64,000 bases of DNA from an uncultured Actinomycetes bacterium (GCA_963742735.1 CAVUMN010000001.1:64001-128000); one strand, 5' to 3'; positions 11,221-53,416 are shown, counted from the stretch's first letter. Translations and numbers: made by a program. Notes: generated by a model from the sequence alone, not told the origin.

Positions 11221-12806
11221 TCACCCCAGGGACGCGGCACGTTCGCGTAGCTCGTACTTCAGCACCTTTCCGCTCGCGTTGAGTGGCAGGGCCTCCACGA
11301 CCTCGATCCGCCGGGGCACCTTGTAGTTGGCGATCCGCTCGCTCAGCCACGCCAGCACGCCCGGGGGATCGATGGTCTTGCCGGCGCGCAGGACGACGAA
11401 GGCGACCCCAACCTCGCCCAGCCGCTCGTCCGGCATCCCCACCACCGCGGCCTGGGCGATGGACGGATGGGTCAGCAGCTCGTTCTCGATCTCCGCCGGG
11501 TACGCGTTGAAGCCGCCGACGATGAACATGTCCTTCACGCGGTCGGTGATCCGGAGGTAGCCGTCCTCGTCCATGACCCCGACGTCGCCGGTGTGCAGCC
11601 ATCCGTCGCACGATGGTCTCGGCGGTCGCCTCCGGGTCCTCGAAGTAGCCCTTCATAACGTTGTAGCCGCGGATCACGATCTCGCCCGGCTGTCCGCGCT
11701 CGGCCTCCTCGCCCTCGGCGTCCACCACCCGCACCTCGGTGTCAGGGATGGCGCGGCCGGACGTGTTGGCGATGGTCTCCGGGTCGTCGCCCGGCCGGCA
11801 CATCGTCGCGGTGCCCGTCGACTCGGTCAGGCCGTACGCGGTGAGGATCGTCTCGAACGTCAGCTCGTCGCGCATCCGGTGGATGAGCTCCACGGGGACC
11901 ACCGCCGCACCGGTGACCGCGAGCCGGAGCGAGGACAGGTTGCGTCCGGCTCGCGACGGCTCCTCGAGGATCGACTGGTACAGCGTCGGCGGCCCGGGCA
12001 GGACGCTCACCCGCTCCTCGTCGATCCGCTCGAGCACCGAGCCGGCGTCGAACACCGCATGGGGGAGCGGTCGTGGCCCCCCGCATGATCGCGGACAGGA
12101 AGCCGGCCTTGTAGCCGAACGTGTGGAAGAACGGGTTGACGACCAGGTACCGGTCGCCCTCGTCGCAGACCGACCACCCGCGACCACACCTCGAAGACCC
12201 GCAGCGTCTGGCCGTGGGTGCACATCACGCCCTTGGGCCGTCCCGTCGTTCCCGACGTGAAGATGATGTCGGAGAGGTCCTCCGCCTTGACGGCGCCGGC
12301 GCGCTGCTCGGCGGCTGATCCCGTGCGCCCTCGAGGCCGTCGCCCAGGAACGCCTCCCAGCCGAGCGCCGCCCTCCCCCTTCAGCAGGACGACCGTCTCC
12401 AGGGCCGGCAGGTCGGCCGCGTCGCCGAGCATCGCCGGGAAGTCGAGGTCCAGGAATCCGCGGACGGTGAACAGCATCCGGGCGCGGCTTCGTCCCAGCA
12501 CGTACGCCGCCTCGCGCCCCTTGAACCGGGTGTTGATCGGCACCAGGACGCCGCCGGCGCCCACCGCGCCGAGCGCGGCGGCGATCCACTCGACGCAGTT
12601 CGGCGCCCAGATCGCCACCCGGTCCCCCGGCTCGATCCCGGCGGCGACCACCGCGGCCGCGCCCGGTCCACGAGCCCCCCGAGGCCGGCGAAGGACATCC
12701 GGACGTCGCCGTCGACGACGGCCTCCTCGTCGGCGAAGCGCTCGACCGAGGATCGGACCAGCCCGGGGATCGAGCCCCACTCCAGGTCGCCCCGCGGCTC
12801 GGTCAC
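11221..12806 (-). pseudogene. fadD3: FadD3-family acyl-CoA ligase with multiple frameshifts (pseudogene or sequencing errors)
   Basis: Consecutive pieces lie in different frames: MTEPRGDLEWGSIPGLV / IIFTSGTTGRPKG / [12 protein letters not shown] / TAYGLTE / [16 protein letters not shown]...NASGKVLK. Confidence 0.7.
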
Positions 12807-30483: not shown

Positions 30484-30497
30484 TAGAACACGTTCTC
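30484..30497. promoter_or_regulatory. KstR-type operator TAGAACACGTTCTC
   Basis: Identical to the 26297 site; 9 nt from the P450 start codon. Confidence 0.85.
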
Positions 30498-30599: not shown

Positions 30600-31928
30600 T
30601 CAGCCTGCCGAGGAGCAGGCCTCCGTGAACTCGAACGCCTCGGCCGTCGGCCCCACGAAGAAGGGCTCGAGGACCGAGGACCCGAGCGGTGCGTCCGGGT
30701 CGGGCTGTCCGATGATCGCTTCCCGAACGACGGCCTCGTTCGGGTCGCCCCCGAACTGGACCTCGGGAAGCGCGCCCTCGTAGTCGACGGTCAGGCCGTC
30801 GGCCGCCGCGAGCAGCCCCGCACGGGTCAGGTCGTTGTTCGCGTGCGCCGCCTCGAGCAGCGACTTCATCGGGTACGACCAGATCCAGCCGAACGTGTAG
30901 CCGTCGTTCGCCGGCAGCTTGTTGCCGGCGGCCTCGACCATGGCGTCATGCGCCGCGGTGTCCGAGGCCCACGGTCCCCACGGCGACACGAAGTGATACA
31001 GCGCCTGGATCGCGGGCGCCGCCTCGCTCTGCAGCAGGGCCGGGTTGAAGGTCGGCACCGAGCCCACGAACTGACCCGTGAACCCCTGCGCCGCCGACTT
31101 GCCGACGATCTCGGCCATCTCGCCCGGTCCGGTGGCGATCACCACGATGTCCGGGCTCGCCCCGAGGATCGCGCCCACGGCCGCGTCCTGGTTGCCCGCC
31201 ACCGCGTTCGGCGCCGTCTCAACGATGTGCGTGTCGGGGTTGAACTCCACCTCGTTGGCCTCGGCCCATTCCCGAACGCCGGCCGCGGAGTCGCCGCCGT
31301 AGTCGCCCGGGTAGCCGACGGCCATGACCGTGGTGGGATCGCCGAACTCACCGGCGGCCCAGTCGAGGCCGTTCTGCGACTCGAGGCAGTAGTTGTAGCC
31401 GCTCTCCAGGATGTTGTCCTCGAACGCCCATCCCGACCACCAGGAGGCCGGCGAGGCGATGACCTCGTCCTCCTTGTAGAGGTCGAGCGCCGCGAGCGTC
31501 GTCGGCGTCCCGAGGGACTGCGCGAGGGCCAGGATCTCGGGTTCGATCTCCCGGTACTTCGCGACGTGCTCCTCGGGGTCGTACTTGTTGTCGCGGGTGT
31601 TGGTCTCGATGTCGACGTCGAACTCCCCGCCGATGCCGCCGTTGGCGTTCACCCGCACCCAGAACGCCTTCTGGCCGTCCGTGATCGGCACCGCGAGCGG
31701 CGCGAACGGGCCCTCGGTCAGGTCGGAAAGGACCCCGAGGTAGATGCAGCCACGGTCTGCGTTCTCGCTGCCCGGGCAGGGCTCGGCCGTGACGCCCACG
31801 CCGGTCTTCAGCTCACCGCCGTTGCCTCCGTTGCCGTCGTCACCCGTGCCCGACGAACAGGCCCCGGCGACCAACATGAGCAGCCCGAGGCCCACCACCA
31901 AGTAGCGCCAGCCCAGCAGCCTTCGCAT
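30600..31928 (-). CDS. HAAT-type ABC substrate-binding lipoprotein
   Basis: Lipobox VAGA-C; GVLSDLTEGPFA, VNANGGIGG, DNKYDP, SLGTPTT; GAAGGAGG SD. Confidence 0.85.
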   Translation of the reverse strand: MRRLLGWRYLVVGLGLLMLVAGACSSGTGDDGNGGNGGELKTGVGVTAEPCPGSENADRGCIYLGVLSDLTEGPFAPLAVPITDGQKAFWVRVNANGGIGGEFDVDIETNTRDNKYDPEEHVAKYREIEPEILALAQSLGTPTTLAALDLYKEDEVIASPASWWSGWAFEDNILESGYNYCLESQNGLDWAAGEFGDPTTVMAVGYPGDYGGDSAAGVREWAEANEVEFNPDTHIVETAPNAVAGNQDAAVGAILGASPDIVVIATGPGEMAEIVGKSAAQGFTGQFVGSVPTFNPALLQSEAAPAIQALYHFVSPWGPWASDTAAHDAMVEAAGNKLPANDGYTFGWIWSYPMKSLLEAAHANNDLTRAGLLAAADGLTVDYEGALPEVQFGGDPNEAVVREAIIGQPDPDAPLGSSVLEPFFVGPTAEAFEFTEACSSAG

Positions 31929-32086
31929 GCCCCCTCCTTCGTCCGGCTCCCGCTTCCCGGCAAGGTGATACCACGCCGCGCCCGCCGAAGCGACCCGAGC
32001 AGCCCGGCGGGAAGGGCATCTGATCTACCATGCGGGCGACGGACCCGTCGGGAGCCGGGTCCCCGGGGTGAAGGGGTGCATCGAGG

Positions 32087-32868
<782 letters not shown>

Positions 32869-32872
<4 letters not shown>

Positions 32873-33738
32873 AGACGCTCGGTGAGCTCCTCGGCACCGC
32901 GGTCCCGGCGCCCGGCGACGGTCCGGTGGGCCCCGTGCTTGAGGTCCGCGACGTCCACCTCGCGTTCGCCGGGGTCCGCGCGATCCGTGGCGTCTCCTTC
33001 GAGGTCGACAGCGACGAGCTGTTCGCCATCATCGGGCCGAACGGCGCGGGCAAGACCTCGCTCTTCAACTGTCTGTCGGGCGTGTACCGGCCGCAGCAGG
33101 GCCGGCTGGTCTTCCTCGGCCAGGACATCACCGACGAGAGCCCGCACGCTATCGCCCGCCTCGGAATGGCCCGGACGTTCCAGAACGTCGAGCTGTTCGA
33201 GAACCTCACGGTGCTCGAGAACCTCCTCCTCGGCCGGCACGTGCACGTCCGATACGGGACCCTCGCCGCGCTGGTCTACGCGGGCCGAGCGAAGCGGGAG
33301 GAGGTCCGCCACCGCGCGGTGGTGGAGCACATCGTCGACTTCCTCGAGATCGAGCAGTGGCGGAAGTACCCGGTGGGCCTCTTGCCATACGGCATCAAGA
33401 AGCGCGTCGAGCTGGGACGGGCGCTCGCCATGGAGCCGAAGCTCCTGCTCCTGGACGAGCCCGTGGCCGGCATGAACGTCGAGGAGACCGAGGACATGGC
33501 CCGGTTCATCCTGGACATCCGCGAGGAGCTCGGGATCCCGATGGTCCTGGTGGAACACGACATGGGGGTGGTCATGGATCTGGCCGATCGCATCCTGGCG
33601 CTCGACTTCGGCCTTCCCATCGCGACCGACACCCCGGAGGAGATCCAGCAGCATCCGGACGTCATCCGGGCCTACCTGGGCGAGGAGCATGCCGTCGAGG
33701 CCGAGGAGGTCGCCGAGACCGAGGAGGTGGCGGGATGA
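32869..33738 (+). CDS. ABC ATP-binding protein, LivG-like
   Basis: GPNGAGKTS, RTFQN, LPYG, LLDEPVAG, VEHDM, AYLG. Confidence 0.93.
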
Positions 33739-35654
33739 GCGGCGTGCGCACGGTACCGGTTCGGGTCCGCGAGTGGGCCGAGCGAAGCCCGGCCGAGGTC
33801 GCGCTGCGCGAGAAGCGCTTCGGCGTGTGGCAGGAGATCACCTGGGGGTCCTACTGGGAAGAGGTCGAGCTGGTCGCGCACGCCCTCATGTCGCTGGGGC
33901 TCGAGCCGGGTGACCGGGTCGGGGTCCATTCCGAGAACCGCCCGGAGTGGCTGTTCGCCGACGTTGGCACCGTGGCCGCGGGCGGCATCACCGTGGGCCT
34001 CTACCCGACGAACCCCGCGGCGGAGGTGCGGCACATCCTGGCGGACTCCGGTGCCAAGGTCCTGATCGCCGAGGACCAGGAGCAGGTCGACAAGGCCCTC
34101 GAGGTCCGGGCCGGCCTGCCGGACCTTCGGTGGATCGTCTACGTCGACCCGAGCGGCGTGACGACATATGACGACGCCTCGCTCCTGTCGTGGAACGACC
34201 TCCTCGAGCGGGGACGCGCCCATCGGGCCGAGCACCCGGATGCCGTCGACCGGACCATGGCCGCCGCCACCGAGGACGACGTCGTGACCCTCATCTACAC
34301 GAGCGGAACGACCGGTCCTCCCAAGGGCGCCATGCTCACCGCGCGCAACGTGAACCTGGCCATCGAGGTGCTCGTGACCTCGGGAGGGTTCTACCAGAAC
34401 CCCACGCCCAGGGACCTGACGCTGTCCTACCTCCCACTGGCGCACGTGGCGGACCGGATCTCGACGGAGTGGACGAACGCCGAGGCCGGGACGCGGGTGC
34501 ACTTCGCCGAGTCGATCGAAACCGTGCAGCTCAACCTGCGGGAGGTGCAGCCCACGCTGTTCTTCGCCGTCCCGCGGATCTGGGAGAAGATGCGGGCGAC
34601 GGTCGAGATCAAGATGGCGTCGGCCTCCCGCATCAAGCGGTGGAACTACGGCCTGTGGATGCGACTCGGCCGCAGCGTGGGCCGGTCGCTCGCTGAGAAC
34701 GGCGGGACGCACACCGTCGGAACCCGCCTCCGGTACGCCCTCGGCTACCCCTTCCTGTTCTGGCCGCTGCGCCGGCAGCTCGGCCTCGCGAAGTGCCGGT
34801 TCGCCTCCAGCGGCGCGGCCCCGATCGCCCCGGAGGTCCTGGAGTGGTTCTTCGGCCTCGGGGTGGTCATCCACGAGATCTACGGCATGACCGAGAACGC
34901 CGCGGTCGCGACCGTGAACCGTCCAGGCCGGATCAAGCTCGGGACGGTCGGTGAGGCCCACGCCGGCATCGAGGTCAAGATCGACGAGCGTACGGGCGAG
35001 ATCCTGACCCGGCACGCCGGGGTGTTCGCGGGCTACTGGAAGCAGAAGGCGAGGACCAAGGAGACGATCGACGCCGAGGGATGGCTGCACACGGGCGACG
35101 TCGGCGAGCTGGTCGACGGCACCCACATCCGCATCGTGGACCGCATCAAGGACATCCTCATCACCGCGGGCGGCAAGAACATCTCCCCGTCCGAGATCGA
35201 GAACTCGCTCAAGTTCTCGCCGTTCATCAAGGAGGCCGTGGTGGTGGGCGACCGCCAGCCGTACCTGAGCGCGCTGATCGGCATCGAGTGGGACACCGTG
35301 GGCGACTGGGCGCAGCGCCGCCGCCTGCCGTACACGACGTACCGGAATCTCTCCGAGAACCCCGAGGTGCTCAAGCTGGTCCAGGACATCGTCTGCGAGA
35401 CGAACGAGCGGTTCTCGCGTCCGGAGAACGTCCGCATGTTCCGGATGATCCCGAAGGAGCTGGACCACGAGGACGGCGAGCTGACGGCGACCCAGAAGGT
35501 CAAGCGCGCGGCGATCGCCGACATGTTCGGGCACCTCGTCGAGGACATGTATTCCGGCGGGAAGGCGCACGCGGGAGGCGACCTCGCCGAGGTGTACTCC
35601 CCCACGCGGCTCGAGGAGGACGAGGACGCCCCGGCGCCGGTGGGAGGCCGCTAG
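33735..35654 (+). CDS. Long-chain acyl-CoA synthetase inside the ABC operon
   Basis: YTSGTTGPPKG, YLPLAH, VPRIWEK, YGMTE, WLHTGD, GGKNISP, ELTATQKVKR. Confidence 0.92.
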   Translation: MSGVRTVPVRVREWAERSPAEVALREKRFGVWQEITWGSYWEEVELVAHALMSLGLEPGDRVGVHSENRPEWLFADVGTVAAGGITVGLYPTNPAAEVRHILADSGAKVLIAEDQEQVDKALEVRAGLPDLRWIVYVDPSGVTTYDDASLLSWNDLLERGRAHRAEHPDAVDRTMAAATEDDVVTLIYTSGTTGPPKGAMLTARNVNLAIEVLVTSGGFYQNPTPRDLTLSYLPLAHVADRISTEWTNAEAGTRVHFAESIETVQLNLREVQPTLFFAVPRIWEKMRATVEIKMASASRIKRWNYGLWMRLGRSVGRSLAENGGTHTVGTRLRYALGYPFLFWPLRRQLGLAKCRFASSGAAPIAPEVLEWFFGLGVVIHEIYGMTENAAVATVNRPGRIKLGTVGEAHAGIEVKIDERTGEILTRHAGVFAGYWKQKARTKETIDAEGWLHTGDVGELVDGTHIRIVDRIKDILITAGGKNISPSEIENSLKFSPFIKEAVVVGDRQPYLSALIGIEWDTVGDWAQRRRLPYTTYRNLSENPEVLKLVQDIVCETNERFSRPENVRMFRMIPKELDHEDGELTATQKVKRAAIADMFGHLVEDMYSGGKAHAGGDLAEVYSPTRLEEDEDAPAPVGGR

Positions 35655-36551
35655 GTGGAAGAGTTCGTCGCCGCCACCGTCCGGGGACTGGGGCAGGGCT
35701 CGCTCTACGCCCTGCTGGGGCTCGGCTTCGTGATGGTCTACAAGAGCACGAAGGTCGTGAACTTCGCCCAGCCGGCGCTGATGATCCTCGGGGCCTATTT
35801 CGCCTCCTACTACTCGATCACGCTGGGGCTCGGGTTCTGGGCCGCGCTCCCGCTGGCGATCCTCACGGGGGCCCTGCTGGGGGCGGTCGTCGAACGGCTG
35901 GCGCTGCGCCCCATGGTCGGCGAGCCCGCCTTCGCGACGGCGATGGTGACGGTCGGCGTCTTCATCGTGCTCTCGGTGATCGCCGGCAACCTGATCGGAT
36001 CGGACATCCGCCGGGTCGGCGACCCGTGGGGACTCAAGCAGACGAACCTGTTGGGCGCGGTCGTGTTCCAGATCGATCTGGTGAAGGTCGCCGTGGCGGC
36101 CGTGGCCATCGGGGCGCTGACCGTGTTCCTCAAGCGCACGCGGGTCGGCCTGGCCATGCGCGCGACCGCGTACAACCAGGAGACCTCCCTGGCCCAGGGG
36201 ATCCCGGTCGGCCGGATGTTCGCCCTGTCGTGGGCCCTGGCCGGGTCCCTCGGGGCGATCGCCGGGGCGTTCGTGGGCAGCGGCGGCGCCGGTTTCACCC
36301 AGAACTCGGGGTTCATCGCGCTGAAGGCGCTGCCGGCCATCGTCCTGGGAGGTCTCGACTCGGCGCCGGGCGCCGTCGTCGGCGGCCTGGTGATCGGCCT
36401 CGCGGAGGCGTACACGAAGACGTACCAGCCCGACCTGTTCCCGTGGGCCGGGTCCAACGTCGACCAGGTGGTCCCCTACGTCGTGATGTTCATCGTCCTC
36501 CTGGTCCGCCCGTACGGTCTGTTCGGGACGCCCGAGATCGAGCGCGTATGA
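35655..36551 (+). CDS. ABC permease, LivH-like
   Basis: YALLGLGF..VVNFAQ, GLAMRA, LGGLDS, RPYGLFG. Confidence 0.92.
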   Translation: MEEFVAATVRGLGQGSLYALLGLGFVMVYKSTKVVNFAQPALMILGAYFASYYSITLGLGFWAALPLAILTGALLGAVVERLALRPMVGEPAFATAMVTVGVFIVLSVIAGNLIGSDIRRVGDPWGLKQTNLLGAVVFQIDLVKVAVAAVAIGALTVFLKRTRVGLAMRATAYNQETSLAQGIPVGRMFALSWALAGSLGAIAGAFVGSGGAGFTQNSGFIALKALPAIVLGGLDSAPGAVVGGLVIGLAEAYTKTYQPDLFPWAGSNVDQVVPYVVMFIVLLVRPYGLFGTPEIERV

Positions 36552-37660
36552 GGGGCCGGCCGTCGCTGGTCACGTCGTACGCCCAGGACCAACAGACCCT
36601 CGGAACCTGGACGAAGCGCGGCTCGTTCGTGCTGCTCGGAGTCGTCCTGGCGGTCCTGCCGCTGTTCATCGACGGGGAGCTCAACGCGTTGATGGCCACG
36701 GCCTTCCTGGCGTCCATCGGGGCCATCGGGCTCAACATCGTCACCGGGTTCGCGGGGCAGGTCTCGCTGGGGCACGCGTTCTTCCTCGGGCTCGGCGCGT
36801 ACACCGCGGCGGTCCTGAACGGAGACCCGGACGGACGCACGGTCGGGTTCGGCCTCGACATGTGGATCTGGCTGCCGGCGGCCGGGCTGGTGGCGGCGAT
36901 CGTGGGCCTGCTGGTCGCCCCGATCGCGACCCGCCTGAAGGGCCTCTATCTGGCGATCGTCACCCTCGGTTTGGTGTTCATCGGTCAGCATCTGTTCCAG
37001 GAGATGCGGTCCCTGACGGGGGGAGCGGGCGTCGGCCGGTCTGCGGCGGACCTGTCCCTGTTCGGGGCGAACTTCGAACGAGGGGGTGCGCTCCTCGGAC
37101 GCGAGATCTCCCGCGAGGCGAACCTGTACTGGATCAGCCTGGGGCTGCTGGTCGTGATGGCCGTGCTCGCGAAGAACCTCCTCCGCTCGGCGATCGGCCG
37201 GGGGTTCACCGCGGTGCGGGACCGCGACATCGCCGCCGAGGTCATGGGCGTGCAGCTCACGAAGCACAAGGTGATCGCGTTCACGATCTCGTCGTTCTAC
37301 GCGGGGGTCGCCGGAGCGATGCTCTCGACCGTCACCGGCTACATCGAGCCGGGGGGCTACAACCTCTTGCTGTCGGTGCAGTACCTGGCGATGATCCTGA
37401 TCGGCGGCATCGGCGCGCTGTCCGGGTCGATCCTCGGAGCCGCGTTCGTGATCCTGCTGCCGCGGTTCGTCGAGGAGATCCCGCGCGTGCTCCCGATCAT
37501 CAGTGGCGGCTCGACCGGCGGATTCCTCACGGTCTTCCAGCTCCAGACGCTGCTCTACGGGGTCCTCATCGTCGTGTTCCTCATCCTGGAGCCGCGCGGG
37601 CTGTTCGGGGTGTGGATCCGGGTCAAGAACTACTTCCGCACCTGGCCGTTCTCGTACTGA
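36548..37660 (+). CDS. ABC permease, LivM-like
   Basis: GLNIVTGFAGQVSLGH, GLYLAIVTL, AVRDRDIAA, EPRGL. Confidence 0.92.
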   Translation: MRGRPSLVTSYAQDQQTLGTWTKRGSFVLLGVVLAVLPLFIDGELNALMATAFLASIGAIGLNIVTGFAGQVSLGHAFFLGLGAYTAAVLNGDPDGRTVGFGLDMWIWLPAAGLVAAIVGLLVAPIATRLKGLYLAIVTLGLVFIGQHLFQEMRSLTGGAGVGRSAADLSLFGANFERGGALLGREISREANLYWISLGLLVVMAVLAKNLLRSAIGRGFTAVRDRDIAAEVMGVQLTKHKVIAFTISSFYAGVAGAMLSTVTGYIEPGGYNLLLSVQYLAMILIGGIGALSGSILGAAFVILLPRFVEEIPRVLPIISGGSTGGFLTVFQLQTLLYGVLIVVFLILEPRGLFGVWIRVKNYFRTWPFSY

Positions 37661-42590: not shown

Positions 42591-42604
42591 TAGAACACGT
42601 TCTC
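42591..42604. promoter_or_regulatory. KstR-type operator TAGAACACGTTCTC
   Basis: Identical to the 26297 and 30484 sites; 9 nt from the fadD19 GTG. Confidence 0.85.
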
Positions 42605-42629: not shown

Positions 42630-43277
42630 TCAGGCCCGGGCGGTCTCCGCTCCCAGCGGGTCGCACATCTTGCAGGGCTCGAGCCCGCGGGCGCCCGCGC
42701 TGACCTTCTTCAGGTCCGTGCGGCCGGCCACCACCGCGCAGTCCGGGCGGTGGAACATCGTCCCCCCCGCGGTGGCGACGAAGGCGCCGTTCGAGCTCCC
42801 GCCCGACGACGCGCTCCCCCCTCCCGAGCCGTTGGACGAGGCGACGAGGGCCTCCTCGATCCGGCGCAGCGCCTGCTCCGTCATCTGCGCCTGACGCTTG
42901 GTCTCCTCGACCTGGCGAGTCAGCCAGTACGCGAAGTAGAACGCGGCGCCGGCGACGACGAGCCCCAGACCGAGCAGGCCGCCCGAGATCAGGTAGGGCA
43001 CCTGCTCGAACAGGTACGGGGTGTGGGCGGCGCCGTACCAGGCCGCGCCGATGAACACGAGCCCGAGGATCAGCAGGACACCGCCGGTGATCATCAGCAT
43101 GCGCGGCACGTCGAGGTTCCACCCCCGGATGCGAAGCTTCGACACCCGCTCGCGGAGCTGATCGGCCTTCGCCGCGGACTCCTGGTCCGTGGCCTCCCGG
43201 GTCGCCGCGGCCTCGGTCCCATCCTCGGCCGGGGTCTTCGGCCGGGGTGCCGCGCGGCCTCGCCGCCGTTGCGCCAT
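42630..43277 (-). CDS. Two-TM membrane protein with C-terminal HxxxC...CxxC (Ada-like Zn-finger) domain
   Basis: Two hydrophobic helices flanking EQVPYLISGG, a coiled segment, then FHRPDC...PCKMCDP. Confidence 0.72.
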   Translation of the reverse strand: MAQRRRGRAAPRPKTPAEDGTEAAATREATDQESAAKADQLRERVSKLRIRGWNLDVPRMLMITGGVLLILGLVFIGAAWYGAAHTPYLFEQVPYLISGGLLGLGLVVAGAAFYFAYWLTRQVEETKRQAQMTEQALRRIEEALVASSNGSGGGSASSGGSSNGAFVATAGGTMFHRPDCAVVAGRTDLKKVSAGARGLEPCKMCDPLGAETARA

Positions 43278-44599
43278 CAGTTACCTCCCAGTGGACATGC
43301 GTCGGCGGTGGCTTCACCGAGCAGCGCCTTGTCGGCGACCCGGCGCAGTACCCGGCTCGAGATCCCCGCGAACAGGCCCCCTCCAACTCCCATCCAGACC
43401 GGCAGGGTCGCCCCGGCCGGCGGCTCCGTGGTCCCCGTGGGGACCGGAGTGACGCCGTCGCCGGGCGGAGCGGGCGACACGATCGGGCCGGGGGCGGGCG
43501 GCAGCGTTCCCCCATCGCCCCCCGGCGGGGGCGGAGGCGGCGGCGGGGGCACGGGCGGTGAGGCCGCCGCCCGGACGGCCACCCCGCCGAGCGCGATCGT
43601 GATCGTCTGGTCGAAGGTCGTCAGGAAGCCCGGCACGTCCGGCGGGATCTGGCTGATGATCTCGGGCGGGATGTTCGAGGCCAGGGTCTTCGGCTTGAAG
43701 GTGATGATCAGCCCGCCCAGGCTTCGCGACGCGGCGGCCCCTTCGATGAGATCGATCGGCTCCGCCACGAACATCTGGATGCCGAGTTGCAGCAGCTGCT
43801 CGTTGAGCGGGCCGGTCACGTCGCGGATGGGGATCGGGACGTTGTTCTCCATGGGCGCGTGGATGCCGTCGCTGTCGACGGTGAACTCGTTGCCCTGGAT
43901 GGTGAGCCCCGACACGAGGGTTCGTCCGCTGAGCTTCGCCGTGGTTCCGTCGCTCGTCGCCTCGGCCACGGTCGAGACCTGCTCGATCTTGATCACGCCC
44001 GCGATGTCGATGTCCGAGACCGAGGAGCGGGCCACGGTCACCGCCGTCTCCCCCTCCGCCGTCCCCGTGACCCGCGACGTGGCCGTCCCGGTGCCCAGGA
44101 CGCCCTCGACCTCCGTCGAGCGGGACACCGCGAGAGCGGACAGCGCCGTGCTCTCCGCGCGCATGGCGTAGACACCGCCGTCGAGGTTCGCCGAGGACTC
44201 CTGTCCCTCGGAGGCGGGGAAGTAGGTCTCCGCCAGGATCGGGTACTTCGGCAGCAGCGGGATGCGGGGGTCCACGTCGTGCAGGGCCGCCCCGAGGTTC
44301 GCGGCGGTGGCCCCCGGCCACAGCGCGCTGGCCACCGAGTGCGACGTGCCGTTGTCGACGCTCACCTCGGCGTGCCCGAGCGAGAGCTCCTGGGTAGGAT
44401 TCGCCGGGATGGGCGCGGCCGGCTGGTGGTACGCCTCGTAGATCGGGGCCGCGCGGCCGGTCATCGAGTACGAGCCGAGCGAGGTGGTCGGTTCCTCCTG
44501 GGCGCCGGCGTTTGCCGTCGGCAGGAGACCGGCCGCCAGGAGGAGTGCCAGGACCTGCACCACGCGGAGTAGGCGGACCGTCCGCTGCCTGACGGTCAC
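43277..44599 (-). CDS. Secreted, C-terminally membrane-anchored protein (choice-of-anchor P-like)
   Basis: Signal peptide (AGA-Q), Ser/Thr/Val/Ala beta-rich body, poly-Pro linker, C-terminal hydrophobic helix followed by basic residues. Confidence 0.65.
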   Translation of the reverse strand: MTVRQRTVRLLRVVQVLALLLAAGLLPTANAGAQEEPTTSLGSYSMTGRAAPIYEAYHQPAAPIPANPTQELSLGHAEVSVDNGTSHSVASALWPGATAANLGAALHDVDPRIPLLPKYPILAETYFPASEGQESSANLDGGVYAMRAESTALSALAVSRSTEVEGVLGTGTATSRVTGTAEGETAVTVARSSVSDIDIAGVIKIEQVSTVAEATSDGTTAKLSGRTLVSGLTIQGNEFTVDSDGIHAPMENNVPIPIRDVTGPLNEQLLQLGIQMFVAEPIDLIEGAAASRSLGGLIITFKPKTLASNIPPEIISQIPPDVPGFLTTFDQTITIALGGVAVRAAASPPVPPPPPPPPPGGDGGTLPPAPGPIVSPAPPGDGVTPVPTGTTEPPAGATLPVWMGVGGGLFAGISSRVLRRVADKALLGEATADACPLGGN

Positions 44600-45300
44600 G
44601 CCGCCCCCCCGAGGTAGGCGCTGGCGAGCTCCTCCTTGATCTCCGCGGGCTGGCCGACGCTGCGGACCTTCCCGCCGACCATGATCGCGGCGTAGTCCGC
44701 GACGGACAGGGCCGTCTGCGCGAACTGCTCGACCAGCAGGATCGACACGCCGCTCGCTCCGATCTGCGCCACGATCTCGTAGAGGCGCGCAACGATCAGC
44801 GGCGCGAGCCCCATCGAGATCTCGTCCAGCAAGAGTACGGCCGGGTCGGTGGCCAGGGCCCGCGCCATGGCCAGCATCTGCTGCTCGCCGCCGGACATGG
44901 TCCCGGCCAGCTGGTGCCGGCGCTCCTTGAGGATCGGGAACCGCGCGAACGCCTCGGCCTCCACCTGGCCCCGCCCCACGTCGCCGTAGGTCATCATCCA
45001 CAGGTTCTCGCGAACCGTGAGGTTCGGGAAGATCCCCCGGCCCTCGGGCAGAGCGCACACGCCGGCGCGGGCCAGCTTGTCGGCACTGGCTCCGTTGATG
45101 TGTCGATCCGCCACGTGGACGCATCCCGAGCTCGGCTTCATCTGGCCGCTCGCCACGCGCAGGGTCGTGCTCTTGCCGGCGCCGTTCGGCCCGAGCAACG
45201 CGACGATGCTGCCCTCGGGGACGACCAGGTCCACCCCGTGGAGAACCTCGATCTTCCCGTACGCCGCGCGCACGTTGCGCAGCTCGAGGACGGCGGTCAT
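44596..45300 (-). CDS. ABC ATP-binding protein, LivF-like
   Basis: GPNGAGKST, MSGGEQQM, LLDEISMG, VEQF, AYLG. Confidence 0.92.
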   Translation of the reverse strand: MTAVLELRNVRAAYGKIEVLHGVDLVVPEGSIVALLGPNGAGKSTTLRVASGQMKPSSGCVHVADRHINGASADKLARAGVCALPEGRGIFPNLTVRENLWMMTYGDVGRGQVEAEAFARFPILKERRHQLAGTMSGGEQQMLAMARALATDPAVLLLDEISMGLAPLIVARLYEIVAQIGASGVSILLVEQFAQTALSVADYAAIMVGGKVRSVGQPAEIKEELASAYLGGAA

Positions 45301-46055
45301 CGTCCCGCCTCCACGGGCTCGGCGGGGGTCTCTTCGGTGCCCAGGTACGCCGCCTGCACGGCCGGATCGGCCTGGACCTCGGCCGGGGTGCCCTGGGCGA
45401 TCATCTGTCCGAAGTCGAGCACGTGGATGCGCTCGCAGATCCCCATGACGAGGTCGATGTCGTGCTCGACGAGGAGCACGCCGAGGTTGTCCTCGCGAGC
45501 CAGATCGCGCAGGACATCGGCCACGCGCTCCTTCTCCTCTTCGGACAGTCCCGAGGAGGCCTCGTCCAGCAGGATCAGCTGAGGGTCCATGGCGAGTGAT
45601 CGGCCGATCTCGACCAGCCGCGCCAGCCCGGTGGGAAGCGAGTCGACGCGGTCCTCCGCCACCGAGCGAAGGCCGACGGTGTCCAGGAGCCGATCGGCCA
45701 CCTTCCGTGGGTCGTCCTGGTCCTTCGACCATCGATTGCGGATCTCCCCCGCCACCAACAGGTTCTCGCGGGTGGTGAGCGTCCCGAACAGCTCGAAACG
45801 CTGGAAGGTGCGGGCGATCCCCTTGCGGGCTCGCTCGTGCGGACGGAGCTTGCTGATGTCCTCGCCGGCGAGAGTGACCTTTCCCCGCACGGTCGCCTGG
45901 AGGCCGCAGATCACGTTGAACAGCGTGGTCTTCCCGGCTCCGTTCGGCCCGATCAGGCCCGTGATGGCACCTGCCTCGGCGTCGAGGTCGGCGTCCGAGA
46001 CGGCGAGGAGTCCGCCGAAGCGCACCGTGGCCGACTCAACCTGCAGCAGCGGCAA
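45297..46055 (-). CDS. ABC ATP-binding protein, LivG-like
   Basis: TTG start after GAGGAGG; GPNGAGKTT, RTFQ, LLDEASSG, VEHD. Confidence 0.9.
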   Translation of the reverse strand: MPLLQVESATVRFGGLLAVSDADLDAEAGAITGLIGPNGAGKTTLFNVICGLQATVRGKVTLAGEDISKLRPHERARKGIARTFQRFELFGTLTTRENLLVAGEIRNRWSKDQDDPRKVADRLLDTVGLRSVAEDRVDSLPTGLARLVEIGRSLAMDPQLILLDEASSGLSEEEKERVADVLRDLAREDNLGVLLVEHDIDLVMGICERIHVLDFGQMIAQGTPAEVQADPAVQAAYLGTEETPAEPVEAGR

Positions 46056-47970
46056 CCGGCACCTCCTCCTCGTGCTCGGCGGACCCCCGGGGCGAAGGCT
46101 CGCTCGCGGGAGCCTTCTGGGCGGGTCCACCTCGGCCACCGGGCAGCAGCTTCCGAATGCCCTCGGAGATCTGGTACGCGACGCCGTTCGGCTGCCGTCC
46201 GACGCTGACCGCGGCCAGCCCGATCAGCAGCGGCACCAGCCCACCGATCTGGGGGAACTGCTCCTGGAGGATCGGCAGGAGGGCGAACGAGAGCCCGCCG
46301 ACGAGCGCACCCCCCACGGAGGTGATGCCACCGATCACCGCGAGCAGGAGCAGGGGAAGGCTCTGCAACATGATGTACTCGACGGAACCGACGTTCGTGA
46401 TCGCGCCGGCGAACAGCGCGCCGCCGACCCCGGCCATCGCGGCGGAGAGCATGAACACCGTGAGCTTCGTGCGGGTCAGCGACAGCCCGAGCGTCGCGCA
46501 CGCCACGGGGCTGTCACGCATGGCCATCAACAGCCGTCCGAACGGCCCGCGTCGGATCCACAGGACCAGCATCCCCATCAGACCGAAAACGGCAGCGAGG
46601 AACACGAGGTAGACGCGGTCGTCCGCGAACGACACGCCGAGCACCTTCAGCCGGCCGATCGGGATCGCGGAGAGGCCGAGGACGTTCCCGAAGAACAGGA
46701 ACTCCATCATCAGCGCGAAGGACATCGTCCACAGGGCGAGGTACAGGCCCTGCAGGCGCAGGGAGGGCAGGGCCACCACCGCCCCGAGGGCTCCCGACGC
46801 CACGGCGGCCAGGACGAGCCCGTGCAGGGTGTTGCCGTCGCCGGTCTTGGCCATGACGAAGGCGCCGACCCCGGCGAAGGTCATCTGGCCGAGCGAGACC
46901 TGTCCCCCGTAGCCGGTGAGGACCACCAGCGAAAGCATGATGATGGCAAGGCCGAGCCCCTGGGACAGGCGCGAGACGTCGCCGGCCTTCAGGAACAGCG
47001 ACGCCCCGAACGTCACCCCAACCAGGACGAACGTCCCCAGCAGCGCCCTCCGCGCGTTGGGCACCTTCGGGGTCACGGCGCCTACCAGTCGACCCGCCCG
47101 CAGACGCGCCTCCGGCATGAACAACAGGACCAGGAACAGGAAGATGATCGGCAGGGACGGCCTGAGCGCGTTCAGCCACCCGCTGAGCTGCACGTAGCCG
47201 ATCGCGTAGTTCTCGACGAGCCCGAGGACGATGGCCCCGGCGTAGGTGAGGGGCAAGCTCTTGAGCCGCCCGACCATGGCCGCCGCGAACGCGTTCACGA
47301 TGAGCAGGGTCAGCGAGATCACGTTCAGCGAGAGGAGCGGCGCGAGCAGGATGCCGGCCAGGGCCGCCAGCGACGCGCCGATGGCCCACGAGAGCTGGCT
47401 CACCCGGTCCGGACGGGCTCCGGTGAGGCCGGCCAGGTTGCGGTCGTCGACCACCGCGCGCATCGCCACGCCGATGCGGGTCCGGTTCAGGAACACGTAG
47501 ATGAACGCAGCAACCGCGAGGCCGGCCGCCACCGTGACGATCTGGTGCCCGGTGATGAAGATCCCACCGACGTTCACCCCCCACGGGGTGAAGAACCCGA
47601 CGACGGTTCTGGACACCTCGTTGGTCCAGACGAGCTGGGCCAGGCCGATCAGCGCCACCATGAGCCCGACCGTCACCACCAGGGACTGGGCGACGCTCGC
47701 CCCCCGGAGATTCCGGATCAGGACCCGCTCGATGAACGCGCCGATCAGCGGCGCCGCCACGAACACGACGACCACGAACGACAGAAGGGTCGGCCACCCC
47801 CAGCTCACGTGGAGCTGCCAGTAGAGGAACGCGCAGAACATCCCGATGGCCCCGTGGGCGATGTTGAAGATCCCCGACGTGATGTAGGTGACCACCAGAC
47901 CGCTCGCCGCCACCGCGTAGATCGCGCCGGTGGCGATCCCCAGGACGGTGAAGGTGATGAGCTTGTCCAC
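46036..47970 (-). CDS. Fused LivH-LivM ABC permease
   Basis: SGIFNIAHG..GVAMRAV (LivH half) and LTGYGGQVSLGQ..GLYLAL (LivM half). Confidence 0.9.
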   Translation of the reverse strand: MDKLITFTVLGIATGAIYAVAASGLVVTYITSGIFNIAHGAIGMFCAFLYWQLHVSWGWPTLLSFVVVVFVAAPLIGAFIERVLIRNLRGASVAQSLVVTVGLMVALIGLAQLVWTNEVSRTVVGFFTPWGVNVGGIFITGHQIVTVAAGLAVAAFIYVFLNRTRIGVAMRAVVDDRNLAGLTGARPDRVSQLSWAIGASLAALAGILLAPLLSLNVISLTLLIVNAFAAAMVGRLKSLPLTYAGAIVLGLVENYAIGYVQLSGWLNALRPSLPIIFLFLVLLFMPEARLRAGRLVGAVTPKVPNARRALLGTFVLVGVTFGASLFLKAGDVSRLSQGLGLAIIMLSLVVLTGYGGQVSLGQMTFAGVGAFVMAKTGDGNTLHGLVLAAVASGALGAVVALPSLRLQGLYLALWTMSFALMMEFLFFGNVLGLSAIPIGRLKVLGVSFADDRVYLVFLAAVFGLMGMLVLWIRRGPFGRLLMAMRDSPVACATLGLSLTRTKLTVFMLSAAMAGVGGALFAGAITNVGSVEYIMLQSLPLLLLAVIGGITSVGGALVGGLSFALLPILQEQFPQIGGLVPLLIGLAAVSVGRQPNGVAYQISEGIRKLLPGGRGGPAQKAPASEPSPRGSAEHEEEVPVAAAAG

Positions 47971-47982
47971 GCGACCGCCGCG

Positions 47983-49401
47983 CTACGGGCTGGTTGGGTA
48001 GGGGACCTTGCGCGTCGGCCGGTCGCACTTCCAGCCGCTGCCCGGGTGGATCCGGTGGAAGGTGTAGTTCCGGACGTCGCCGTACAGGTAGCAGGGCCCG
48101 GTCAGCTTCTGGCCCGTGAGATGGGGTCCGTGCAGCCCGTGCGAGTCCCACTCCGCCACCTTGGCGATCTCGGACAGAAACGCCTTGCGGGTCAGGTTCG
48201 GCCCGACCTTCGTGGCCACCTCCTGGAACAGGCGGCCGGCCGACCACGCGTACAGGCCGAAGAAGTCGGGCTTCTTGCCGGGCGCGACCTGCGCCAGCCA
48301 CTGCCGGTAGAGGTCCATCTCGGCGTTCCCGGACTCCTCGAACATGGCCGTGTTGATGAACCAGAACAGGTTGGTGGTGGTGATCCCGCGGTCCTTGAGG
48401 TCCTGCAGGAACAGCGGGCTGTACACCACCGAGTCGAAGTCGATGAAGTCCGGATGCCACTGCTGTTGGTCCATCGCCTGAAGCATGTTCTCGGCGCTCT
48501 GGTAGTTGCCGACGAACGTCAGGTACTTCACCGGCGGGTTGTGGTTCTTCATCTGCGACACGTAGCTCGCGTAGTTGGGGTCGGTGACCTGCGCCTCCTG
48601 GCGGTACACGAACTCGAACCCGGCCTGTTCGTACGCGCGCTCGCGCGAGGCCATGTTCGTGCGTGCCACCGGCTGGTTCAGCCAGACCGCGGCCGCTCCG
48701 GATTTCACGTCCGGGGCGGTCTGGTTCACGTAGCTGGCCGTGTCCATGATGTAGTCGGGCCGCTGGGGGTAGGCCGGGTAGTAGTTGGGCGGATAGATCT
48801 GGTCGCTCTTCCAGGCGTTCGTGCTGATCGCCGGGATGGCGGGGATGCCGCACTCGTTGCCGGCGTCGTACCCACCGCCGTCGAAGGCCGACATGGAGCC
48901 GACGATCGCGAAGTCGGCATTGCAGGCGGAGCGCGTCCCGGACTGGTTCCCGCCCGAGTTCGTCCCGGTGTCGTAGATGTCCACCGCCACCGTCCGGCCG
49001 CAGATGCCGCCGGCGTTGTTGACCATCGCCGCCCAGGCCTGCATGGCCTCCTTGGCGGGAGTGAACAGACCCGTCTGGACGCCGCTCAGATCGACCACCA
49101 CGCCGATCTTGATCTGGTCGGCGGTGACGCCGGTGTCGCTGGCCTTGTTCTCGCCCTCGGCACACGCGGAGGTGGGCGCGCCGGGCGAGCCAGTGCCGCC
49201 GGTGGGCACGGCACCCGGGCTGTTGGTCGCGCCGTCGGTCGGGACGGCTCCCGGGCTGTTGGTTGCGACGGGGTTACCGGCCGGGTCGAACGCGACGCCG
49301 CCGCTGAGGACCGCGTCGCGCTGCTCCTGGGTCAGGCGCGCACCGCAGGACACGGTAAGCAGGGCGAGGGCAAACAGGATGGCCGCCGTGCGGGACCGCA
49401 C
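47983..49401 (-). CDS. HAAT-type ABC substrate-binding lipoprotein
   Basis: GGAGG SD; lipobox TVS-C; SDTGVTADQIKIG, VNNAGGICGR, FAIVGSMS. Confidence 0.85.
   Translation of the reverse strand: MRSRTAAILFALALLTVSCGARLTQEQRDAVLSGGVAFDPAGNPVATNSPGAVPTDGATNSPGAVPTGGTGSPGAPTSACAEGENKASDTGVTADQIKIGVVVDLSGVQTGLFTPAKEAMQAWAAMVNNAGGICGRTVAVDIYDTGTNSGGNQSGTRSACNADFAIVGSMSAFDGGGYDAGNECGIPAIPAISTNAWKSDQIYPPNYYPAYPQRPDYIMDTASYVNQTAPDVKSGAAAVWLNQPVARTNMASRERAYEQAGFEFVYRQEAQVTDPNYASYVSQMKNHNPPVKYLTFVGNYQSAENMLQAMDQQQWHPDFIDFDSVVYSPLFLQDLKDRGITTTNLFWFINTAMFEESGNAEMDLYRQWLAQVAPGKKPDFFGLYAWSAGRLFQEVATKVGPNLTRKAFLSEIAKVAEWDSHGLHGPHLTGQKLTGPCYLYGDVRNYTFHRIHPGSGWKCDRPTRKVPYPTSP
49171..49266 (-). repeat. Degenerate coding tandem repeat (ATNSPGAVPT x2 plus GSPGAPT) in the SBP linker
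   Basis: CCCGGGCTGTTGGT recurs at 36-nt spacing; the repeat is visible in the translation. Confidence 0.65.
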
Positions 49402-49445
49402 GTCCCCTCCCTCCCGCGGCACCCGGGCCGCTGTCGGTTCTCAGG

Positions 49446-50642
49446 TTACTGCCGGGGCGAGCCCCCGGCTGCGGGCGTTCCACGCATCTCGGACCACGGA
49501 CGCCCCAGGTCGGGCTCGGGCTCCCGCGGCAGGCCGAGGATGCGCTCTCCAATGATGTTCCGCAACACTTCCGAGGTTCCTCCCCCGATGGTGAGAGCGG
49601 GGCTGAACAGGAACCCCTGCGCCCACCACCCTCCGGGGGCTCCGAGCGGCCCGGCGTCCTCCAGGACCCCGGCCGCGCCGGCCAGGTCGCGGGCCACCTG
49701 GAACACGTGCTGGCCGTGCGGGTCGCCGAGCGCCTTCCGCACGCTCGACATGCGGCCGTCCCCCCGGCCGGTCACCGCGTCGCCGACCTGCCGGAGCCCG
49801 TGGATGCGGTAGATCTCGCCCTCGATGTAGAGGGCGGCCAGGCGATCGCGCAGGACCTCGTCGGAAACCCCGCCGCGCTCGCGGGCCACCTCGACCAGGT
49901 CGGTCGCGGTGGGTCCCCATCCCCACTGCGCGCCCTGACGGGAGAGCGTCACGCGCTCGTTGACCAGCGTCTCCTTCGCGAGCCCCCAGCCGCGGTTCTC
50001 CTCGCCGATCAGCTGGTCGGCCGGCACGCGGACGTCGGTGAAGAACACCTCGTTGAACCCGCCGGCCTCGTTGTGCCACCCCGTGGCGTCGACGATCGGG
50101 CGAACGTCGATGCCCTGGGCCTTCATGTCGATGATGAAATACGAGAGGCCGTCGTGCTTCGGGACGTCCGGGTTCGTGCGGGCCAGCAGGATGCCGAGCT
50201 GCGCGAAGTGGCCCAGCGACGTCCAGATCTTCTGCCCGTTCACGACGAACTCGTCGCCGTCGCGAACCGCCTTGGTCGCGACGCTCGCCAGGTCCGACCC
50301 CGCCCCGGGCTCGCTGAACAGCTGGCACCAGATCTCCTCGCCGGCCATCATCGGCGGGATGTAGCGCGCCTTCTGCTCCTCGGTCCCGTGGGACACGAGG
50401 ATGGGCCCGCAGTGGCCGGTGCCGATCGGGTTGATCGGGCGCTGCACGCCCGCGCGCTTGAGCTCGTCGTCGATGATCAGCTGCATCAGCGGGTCCGCGT
50501 CGAGCCCCCACGGCCTCGGCCAGTGCGGGACGACGTATCCGGCGTCGGCGAGGTCGCGTCCGCTCGGGTTCGGATGCTCCGCCAGCCAGTCCCTGACCTC
50601 CGCGCGCCGGGGATCGTCGTCCGGCGGGAGCAGGAAATCCAT
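49446..50642 (-). CDS. Acyl-CoA dehydrogenase (alpha-type, FadE34 C-domain-like)
   Basis: GYVVPHWPRPWG, WCQLFSEPGAGSDLA, LVNERV, IGGGTSEVLRNIIGER. Confidence 0.9.
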   Translation of the reverse strand: MDFLLPPDDDPRRAEVRDWLAEHPNPSGRDLADAGYVVPHWPRPWGLDADPLMQLIIDDELKRAGVQRPINPIGTGHCGPILVSHGTEEQKARYIPPMMAGEEIWCQLFSEPGAGSDLASVATKAVRDGDEFVVNGQKIWTSLGHFAQLGILLARTNPDVPKHDGLSYFIIDMKAQGIDVRPIVDATGWHNEAGGFNEVFFTDVRVPADQLIGEENRGWGLAKETLVNERVTLSRQGAQWGWGPTATDLVEVARERGGVSDEVLRDRLAALYIEGEIYRIHGLRQVGDAVTGRGDGRMSSVRKALGDPHGQHVFQVARDLAGAAGVLEDAGPLGAPGGWWAQGFLFSPALTIGGGTSEVLRNIIGERILGLPREPEPDLGRPWSEMRGTPAAGGSPRQ

Positions 50643-50648
50643 GCGGCG

Positions 50649-50700
50649 ATTCTCTCCGGACGCCCAAGAAATTGCAACACGTTCTAGTTCGGGCTATCGT
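50649..50700. promoter_or_regulatory. Divergent promoter region with KstR operator TGCAACACGTTCTA (50673-50686)
   Basis: Operator fits TnnAACnnGTTnnA. Plus strand reads TTGCAA-17-TATCGT; minus strand reads TTGCAA-17-GAGAAT. Confidence 0.75.
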
Positions 50701-50714
50701 GGCCGTAGACCGTT

Positions 50715-53416
<2,702 letters not shown>

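Follow-up and report, generated by a model that had tools for sequence, protein, structure and literature searches.

The sterol importer Mce4 is built from YrbE permeases and six Mce proteins. It is confined to mycolic acid bacteria, and the accessible text of the report on this distribution states that the uptake systems of other bacteria are unidentified (PMC4810484). CamABCD of Rhodococcus jostii RHA1 re-imports cholate metabolites, as described in the available parts of two publications (PMC8399759, PMC6678751). Here, we analyze a window of 64,000 nt (the whole stretch of DNA under study) from an uncultured Actinomycetes bacterium with a genome assembly of 3.08 Mb that is 88.9% complete. 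Behind a predicted KstR operator, this window carries an operon for an ATP-binding cassette importer of the hydrophobic amino acid transporter type (HAAT or Liv type), comprising a solute-binding protein (SBP), a fused permease and two ATPases, together with a membrane-anchored surface protein (hereafter, the anchor) and a Zn-finger membrane protein. We give roughly even odds, a probability of about 0.5, to the reading that this operon is a KstR-regulon steroid importer that works as a six-component HAAT system on side-chain-bearing steroids. It is probably the KstR-regulon steroid importer of its lineage and, for such lineages without Mce4, the foremost candidate for how steroids are taken up. 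A steroid link of Liv-type importers has precedents, CamABCD among them.

Organization of the locus and its predicted KstR operator

A sequence check placed all genes, junctions and motifs of the transporter operon on the minus strand exactly where they had been predicted, with the KstR box, the acyl-CoA dehydrogenase (ACAD) gene, the 44-nt gap and the order and overlaps of the six transporter genes all confirmed. The features are the following:

50715..51341, plus strand: divergent gene for a KstR-like TetR repressor; best NCBIfam match NF033703 with 148.7 bits, below the cut-off of 280
50673..50686: predicted KstR-type palindromic operator TAGAACGTGTTGCA, which the ACAD-transporter operon would share with the divergent kstR-like gene
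49446..50642, minus strand: ACAD, first gene of the operon
47983..49401, minus strand: lipoprotein SBP (PF13458; HAAT/Peripla_BP_6 fold)
46036..47970, minus strand: fused LivH-LivM permease (LivHM) of 644 aa with two PF02653 stretches
45297..46055, minus strand: LivG-type ATPase (DEASSG) with a presumed TTG start, overlapping LivHM
44596..45300, minus strand: LivF-type ATPase (DEISMG), ATGA overlap with LivG
43277..44599, minus strand: anchor gene, choice-of-anchor-P-like, GTGA overlap with LivF
42630..43277, minus strand: Zn-finger gene with two transmembrane (TM) helices, TGATG overlap with the anchor gene
42591..42604: second KstR-like box, ahead of fadD19

The operator TAGAACGTGTTGCA lies 31 nt upstream of the ACAD start (50642) and 29 nt upstream of the kstR-like gene (50715), is found at the same place in close orthologues and puts a TnnAACnnGTTnnA operator ahead of the operon as is characteristic of the KstR regulon. 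Exact TnnAACnnGTTnnA occurs 19 times in the 3.08-Mb genome, and a strict box within 5 kb upstream was found for only one of its 15 HAAT SBP genes, the window SBP at 47983-49401; within the steroid cluster of this genome, the six-gene Liv module is the sole transporter with a KstR box. The KstR-like repressor of the window is the best match (37%) of a KstR that passes the NF033703 cut-off and shows the identical divergent arrangement, and the window ACAD is the best match (41.5%) of the ACAD divergent from this passing kstR in a mycobacterial-type genome, which we take to be FadE34/ChsE3. The SBP gene follows the ACAD gene after 44 nt and is itself followed by LivHM after 12 nt, and the six-gene unit ends before fadD19 (start at 42581; NF005863 with 735.7 bits against a cut-off of 543) because the latter has its own KstR-like box. 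As in HAAT importers, the SBP is of the Type I periplasmic-binding-protein class (PF13458 with 111.9 bits against a cut-off of 31.7), and a permease with two BPD_transp_2 units is encoded in one operon with a pair of LivG/LivF-type ATPases; the NCBIfam Liv equivalog scores of the window proteins all lie below cut-off.

The steroid cluster on this contig encodes Ltp2, Ltp3/4-type thiolases, FadD19 above cut-off, an EchA19-like protein, an Rv3520c-like luciferase-like monooxygenase (LLM) and a KstR-boxed P450, and genes that we take, partly from synteny, to be ipdAB-, echA20-, ipdF- and fadA6-like lie upstream of the window.

Conservation of the six-gene module

A scan of genome contigs with 48 aligned Zn-finger proteins returned 113 relatives, of which the best 80 loci were kept; they come from 72 assemblies labelled Actinomycetota, Acidimicrobiia, Frankiales or Mycobacteriales and one Burkholderiales-labelled bin. 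The same kind of scan with the single anchor protein as query gave no matches. Because some genes in lower-GC loci escaped the gene caller, counts were made by six-frame profile searches. In 77 of the 80 loci, the anchor gene is the immediate upstream neighbor of the Zn-finger gene, with the remaining three stopping at a contig edge, and all 50 loci that have at least 7 kb upstream hold LivHM together with an SBP of the same clade, which supports the predicted unity of the six genes. LivG and LivF are both present in 37 of these 50 loci; the other 13 comprise three with a LivHM-LivF fusion and ten Acidimicrobiia loci without an ATPase in the operon, of which two were followed further and have LivG and LivF close to those of the window at the end of a divergent operon. 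Gene order is variable (the SBP gene may come first or last, and the anchor and Zn-finger genes precede the permease in some loci and follow it in others), with the adjacency of anchor and Zn-finger genes as its constant element. At 50% identity, the anchor family forms 745 clusters (E<=1e-30).

In the reverse direction, the SBP alignment was searched against 301 genomes of the phylum and 20 previously unsettled SBP loci were fetched. An anchor gene stands beside four high-scoring SBPs (L147, L154, L155 and L156, with the permease of L154 off the contig), and every high-scoring SBP that adjoins a permease with enough contig had one (L147, L155, L156). Three loci end at contig edges (L140, L141, L146), six lower-scoring SBP loci have no anchor (including L148, L150, L152 and L153), and seven orphan SBPs (L137-L139, L142-L145) lie beside P450, short-chain dehydrogenase (SDR) and aldehyde dehydrogenase genes or ipdAB-like genes; perhaps such orphans are alternative binding proteins for the same transporter. 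Weak Zn-finger homologues were found in 20 further genomes of the order. Of 16 such loci fetched, seven adjoin Liv genes of a different clade (in five cases with another kind of surface protein), four have no transporter nearby and one is a fusion.

Several variants of the architecture were seen along the way. Ten Acidimicrobiia loci (L041, L046, L047, L053-L056, L065, L067, L090) combine two divergent Liv systems, one of them without ATPases, with a generic mce operon ca. 10 kb away that adjoins Pup/tat-like genes. The genome under study has a second six-gene copy at 884-891 kb of contig C4 (L008; SBP-anchor-Zn finger-LivHM-LivG-LivF) and, at C3:794000-802000 (L010), a system in which LivH and LivM are split, the surface protein is of another kind and the hairpin/Zn-finger gene is convergent, a layout that recurs in relatives. 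The Burkholderiales-labelled bin (L093) holds a full module whose SBP is nested among actinobacterial ones, which may reflect mis-binning or transfer; the SBP tree was built with FastTree, and long-branch warnings apply to it.

The post-Walker-B loops DEASSG and DEISMG of the two ATPases are present as predicted but do not set the module apart: the proline is kept in 36 of 47 orthologous LivG motifs, and six of the eight other LivF-type ATPases of the genome under study also lack it. The ATPase D-loop was therefore rejected as a signature of the module.

Association with steroid genes and KstR boxes

Among the 61 genomes of the order sample (which include the unpublished G006 and G030 as negatives or weak matches), five have close anchor orthologues and two more reach E near 1e-3; Ltp2 above cut-off was found in six, namely those five anchor genomes and a 69%-complete one. 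In the phylum sample, where five candidates were scored per genome, a strong anchor (at least 170 bits) was found in 12 of 301 genomes, all of them among the 32 that are Ltp2-positive, and was not found in eight mce-rich f41 and seven f27 Ltp2-positive genomes. Of 50 loci, 17 have a strict KstR box upstream, compared with an expectation of 0.1 based on shuffled sequence; in an 18th locus, the box falls inside a gene. A matrix built from such boxes adds five loci for a total of 22 of 50. Boxes are also present in four of four loci on another, long branch that stands apart in the SBP tree (L105, L107-L109), where they are located immediately ahead of the SBP gene or at the module. The expected co-occurrence with steroid genes and KstR holds for close orthologues (five of six Ltp2-positive genomes in the order sample) and fails for divergent copies in four Ltp2-negative genomes. 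We rejected the idea that the architecture is exclusive to steroid systems, given the weak homologues in 20 genomes of the order and six-gene copies in four Ltp2-negative genomes. The six-gene architecture is general to some actinobacterial Liv systems, and its steroid link belongs to the branch of the window and several others.

Relation to mce operons

The window had been described as free of mce and yrbE genes, and the whole 88.9%-complete assembly likewise gave no match to PF02470 or PF02405; the YrbE permeases and six Mce proteins that define Mce4 are found neither at the locus nor in the genome. Among genomes that carry the module, 25 mce operons with a visible YrbE show 39-54% identity to the YrbE-A of a KstR-boxed mce4-like operon, whereas two operons of the latter kind share 93% with each other, and no YrbE was seen at five further carrier loci. 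The carrier operons are of a generic kind, mostly with an ATPase within the operon, and those tested fall outside the mce4-like clade in a tree; for several of them, the upstream DNA is missing from the assemblies. Where this could be checked, carriers hence have no true Mce4 (the 25 YrbE-bearing operons are not Mce4), and the designation "Mce4-independent" stands, with the module a candidate for the sole sterol route just where no mce genes were found, as in the genome under study. Mutual exclusion of the module and mce genes was rejected, with PF02470 matched in 66 of 80 genomes searched.

The solute-binding protein

The SBP has a probable lipidation site at Cys19 and a disordered linker (31-74), and its model shows a confident HAAT fold (pTM 0.83) that matches HAAT SBPs. 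The best profile match is the fatty-acid SBP 4N03 of Thermomonospora curvata (E 2e-28, 19% identity), which is also the second Foldseek match of the model (TM-score 0.65/0.78). In LivK, the amino group of the ligand is bound by Y150, Y202 and E226. In a remote alignment, the equivalents of these residues are lost (the columns hold V/S/T, D/A/N/E and G/D/T-type residues), and the amino-group-binding residues of LivJ/LivK are hence not present in the window protein; the equivalent of the carboxylate-binding S79 of LivK is kept in 53 of 58 SBPs. Judging from these residues, the window SBP appears not to be an amino acid binder because the Y150, Y202 and E226 equivalents are lost, and the polar handle site at the S79 equivalent would fit a carboxylate or a hydroxyl. 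An SBP of the amino acid type, an outcome named beforehand as speaking against a sterol importer, is accordingly not what these positions suggest.

A second HAAT system lies at 30600-37660 of the window, where an SBP gene is divergent from genes for LivF, LivG, a FadD11-like ligase, LivH and LivM. Its SBP (30600-31928) matches the fatty-acid SBP 4N03 directly (E 2e-35), and the box at 30484 is part of a P450 leader and not of this second system.

The Zn-finger protein

This protein consists of a 2-TM hairpin and a C-terminal Ada-like Zn finger with the ligands H176-C180/C202-C205 (H-x3-C/C-x2-C). The Ada Zn-binding domain has four Cys ligands including the methyl-accepting one. This set is not present in the window protein, and its likeness to Ada is marginal (1ADN at E 0.39; one of 48 members matches PF02805, at E 0.0045). 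At locus L198 (9069-11333; contig C123 of G012), LivHM carries the Zn finger as a C-terminal fusion (residues 710-751), and this fused permease is divergent from SBP-LivG-LivF. In a sister Liv clade, livF is followed by a gene for a two-helix membrane protein of 114-125 aa without Zn finger or anchor, which is a remote homologue of the hairpin (hhalign probability 94%) and was located as follows:

L119:8389-8733
L133
L148:13964-14305
L150:12610-12978
L152:13990-14364

These anchor-less loci also lie among steroid or lipid genes. At L105 and L107-L109, the Zn finger is missing.

The anchor and a model of its complex with the SBP

The anchor is composed of a signal peptide, an all-beta ectodomain (43-347), a Pro-rich stalk, a TM helix (ca. 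401-427) and a short tail (model pLDDT 82), and 74 of 75 homologues have a Cys within their last 25 aa, which is absent in divergent branches. It scores 37.5 bits against the cut-off of 27 for NF040603 (choice-of-anchor P) in a match that is partial, covering model positions 41-133 of 185, and 46 of 75 anchor homologues match this family at E<=1e-4. No function is attached to NF040603, and the literature searched does not name it. A second choice-of-anchor-P protein is encoded at C3:568536-569153 of the genome under study, away from Liv transporters.

The original prediction had the surface protein capture sterol, and this part found no support, neither in a fold search, whose listed matches include no lipid-carrier fold, nor in the hydrophobicity of the strands. 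With the whole 440-residue model as query, the best match reached Z 6.9 (rmsd 3.5 over 107 residues, a beta-barrel wall), none of 48,161 chains reached Z>=8, and the structures listed for it include no lipid-carrier fold of the LprG/LppX, LolA, TULIP or LptA kind. The strands bear small residues and few aromatics and form no clear groove. Searching the sequence against the PDB gave no match, ESM Atlas yielded nothing beyond actinobacterial clusters of hypothetical proteins and a lead to DUF8256 (0.83; 11% of members), and no fusions were found among the top 150 representatives (412-548 aa).

When SBP 76-466 and anchor 36-352 were modelled as a complex, the result supported the putative binding of the two proteins. 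The complex scored 0.64 (0.56, 0.64 and 0.79), with 0.00 for the best of three controls; the score mark is reached by 116 of 157 solved pairs and two of 215 mismatched pairs, calibration counts that hold roughly here since we used our own alignments. The runs share at least 0% of contacts, with a partner pLDDT of at least 75, and the best pose would place SBP 265-312 against anchor strands 47-58, 279-300 and 331-343. A loop insertion and Trp in 18 anchor-less sister SBPs amount to a single phylogenetic event and were left uncounted.

Proposed mechanism and alternative explanations

In mycobacteria, KstR is released from its operators by steroid CoA intermediates. Such release would open the operon, whereupon the lipid-anchored SBP would bind a steroid whose side chain has yet to be degraded (a C27-C29 sterol or sterone or a side-chain acid) and hand it to LivHM, with LivG and LivF powering import. 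The cargo would bear an intact alkyl side chain because the cluster combines a KstR-boxed P450 with Ltp3/Ltp4 and FadD19. The membrane-tethered beta-protein would, according to the complex model, dock on the C-lobe of the SBP and serve at the cell surface as its partner in loading or holding. The 2-TM hairpin may pack on the permease, and the Zn finger could lie in the cytoplasm where permease and ATPases meet, with a role in assembly or regulation, as the fusion suggests. The P450, FadD19 and the ChsE and Ltp enzymes of the cluster would then process the cargo. Of the six-component importer originally proposed, the co-travelling genes, the KstR and steroid context, the SBP-anchor model and the LivHM-Zn-finger fusion lend weight to the composition, whereas capture and hand-over by the surface protein and specificity for sterols did not gain support. 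A more far-reaching version, in which the anchor extracts insoluble sterol from particles or membranes for the docked SBP, hairpin and Zn finger couple this to the permease and the system takes the place of Mce4 in actinobacteria without mycolic acids (Acidimicrobiia, Frankiales-like and uncultured lineages), appears unlikely to us.

Several observations weigh against a side-chain-bearing steroid as the cargo of a six-component importer. Some mce operon is present in 45 of 50 carrier genomes and could import sterol, so the module does not generally replace mce operons; one carrier mce operon (L178) has a KstR-like box ca. 880 nt upstream, and another (L163) adjoins fadD19-like genes. Nocardioides simplex, which is not a mycolate bacterium, has a KstR-controlled mce operon according to the accessible text of PMC7593942. 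The 88.9%-complete genome gave no match to kshA, hsaA, hsaC, kshB-like or hsaEFG-like queries or for a kstD-like gene. Ltp2 is found in 35 of 47 locus genomes and missing from 12, including a complete Acidimicrobiia genome; ten of these 12 are Acidimicrobiia-type and still have ChsE-like pairs, and one Acidimicrobiia-type genome (G364) has FadD19, Ltp3/4, KstR-like and KshA genes nearby. About half of the loci have no box, and several lie among unrelated genes. The second copy in the genome under study (L008) sits among thiolase, ACAD and CoA-ligase genes without a KstR box, and four of the 16 weak-homologue loci hold a full, divergent six-gene module in a genome that is Ltp2-negative; given these copies, the architecture is not specific to sterols. 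The poses of the complex disagree, and the modelled interface is no better conserved than the rest of the SBP or the anchor. Loci were picked via Zn-finger motifs and profiles built from the same loci, a shared origin that renders motif conservation and part of the synteny count circular, and genomes and loci include kin that are not independent, which is why we claim no statistics.

The missing A/B-ring genes bear most directly on what is imported: since those searched were not found, steroid acids or ring-opened metabolites are possible substrates. The module may then resemble CamABCD as a scavenger that imports solely soluble steroid acids or ring-opened C/D-ring (HIP-type) metabolites that other degraders release, with anchor and hairpin in structural roles, which we consider possible but doubtful. 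Along with the ipdAB-, echA20-, ipdF- and fadA6-like genes in a genome without kshA-, hsaA-, hsaC- or kstD-like matches, it would account for the failure to find kshA in four of five further carriers tested, for HsaA orthologues in just 19 of 49 locus genomes (mostly labelled Frankiales or Mycobacteriales) and for the widely kept carboxylate-binding S79 equivalent, and it has precedents in the re-import of cholate metabolites by CamABCD and in the Liv-type annotation of ro04885/ro04887 of strain RHA1, as far as the accessible sources go. Yet a KstR-boxed P450 with Ltp3/Ltp4 and FadD19 implies cargo whose alkyl side chain is intact, P450 genes are repeatedly found next to the module and next to orphan SBPs, HsaA-positive lineages have the same module behind KstR boxes, and four-gene Liv systems would be enough for soluble acids. 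Like the genome under study, G012, G027, G068 and G201 have side-chain and C/D-ring genes and no kshA-, hsaA-, hsaC- or kstD-like match was found in them; genomes of this kind are perhaps partial degraders, cross-feeders or users of an unknown A/B-ring route.

Improbable, by comparison, is a general importer of hydrophobic compounds (fatty acids, terpenoids or other lipids) that some lineages recruited to the steroid regulon and whose main cargo is not steroids. The nearest solved SBP is indeed a fatty-acid binder, and six-gene copies occur in Ltp2-negative genomes and non-steroid neighborhoods, among them the box-less second copy here with its thiolase and CoA-ligase genes; but identity to 4N03 is just 19%, the FadD11-like-linked SBP at 30600-31928 is the better fatty-acid candidate (4N03 at E 2e-35), and KstR boxes recur in several SBP branches. 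At least as improbable is that translational coupling, 77 of 80 adjacencies despite shuffled gene orders, an SBP-anchor model that passes its controls, a permease-Zn-finger fusion and a remote hairpin homologue after livF in the sister clade would all be found for an ordinary four-gene Liv importer whose neighbors are a co-regulated surface adhesin (the anchor) and a separate membrane regulator (the Zn-finger protein), neither of them a subunit. What speaks for such a separation are choice-of-anchor-P domains that also exist away from transporters, as in the second match of this genome, weak Zn-finger homologues without a nearby transporter (four of 16), the absence of the Zn finger from L105 and L107-L109 and an interface that is not specially conserved.

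Other features of the window

A fadA5-like thiolase gene at 51361-52525 of the window has one frame shift near position 52195 relative to an intact orthologue, which may be an assembly error or mark a pseudogene; three soil DNA runs gave short pieces only that leave the break uncovered. A FadD3-like ligase gene at 11221-12636 reads as four pieces across three frames.

Comparison with known systems

The module is real and conserved and, as a HAAT importer variant of six components, appears not to have been described. Searches of the open-access literature brought up no account of a HAAT importer whose SBP has a tethered surface partner and which includes a hairpin/Zn-finger membrane subunit. 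The available text of a Rhodococcus equi estrogen paper (PMC7471831) describes an induced Liv SBP and LivF and no such module.

CamABCD and the Liv genes of cluster C in N. simplex are likewise ABC importers tied to steroid catabolism, though CamABCD comprises four genes as named and was compared with the window system by annotations only. We take ro04885-88 of strain RHA1 to be camABCD. In the accessible part of the supplement to PMC7593942, ro04885/ro04887 are annotated LivG/LivH and KR76_25180/25190 of N. simplex LivF/LivH, the cluster C LivF and LivH genes have Comamonas orthologues, and the locus tag adjoining livF in N. simplex is an IclR gene, so that an accessory gene is not evident there. 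Mce4 shares with the window system its control by KstR, which is predicted for the latter, its place inside a steroid cluster and a multi-subunit build with accessory membrane proteins (Mam/LucA; from the available text of PMC6678751), but the window system has no YrbE, Mce or MceG homology and the likeness is one of analogy only. The T. curvata protein 4N03 illustrates that HAAT SBPs can bind long hydrophobic ligands, although it is only 19% identical to the window SBP and closer to the other SBP of the window. Among the accessory proteins, the anchor scores above the cut-off of NF040603 with a match that is partial, and the Zn finger resembles the N-terminal Zn-binding domain of Ada (PF02805) in spacing, with the first Ada Cys replaced by His and the domain tethered to the membrane.

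For steroid uptake outside the mycolic acid bacteria, where the accessible text of PMC4810484 leaves the systems unnamed, the module provides a concrete six-gene candidate that is widespread, as judged from the 745 anchor clusters, and present in a cultured strain, Actinospongicola halichondriae (L054). Compared with HAAT importers of the LivKHMGF type, it has the same Peripla_BP_6 SBP, LivH and LivM (fused in the window) and LivG and LivF, and differs in the absence of the amino-group-binding residues and in two extra coupled genes; such accessory genes are found in several Liv clades of actinobacteria and would add to the architecture that textbooks give for these importers.

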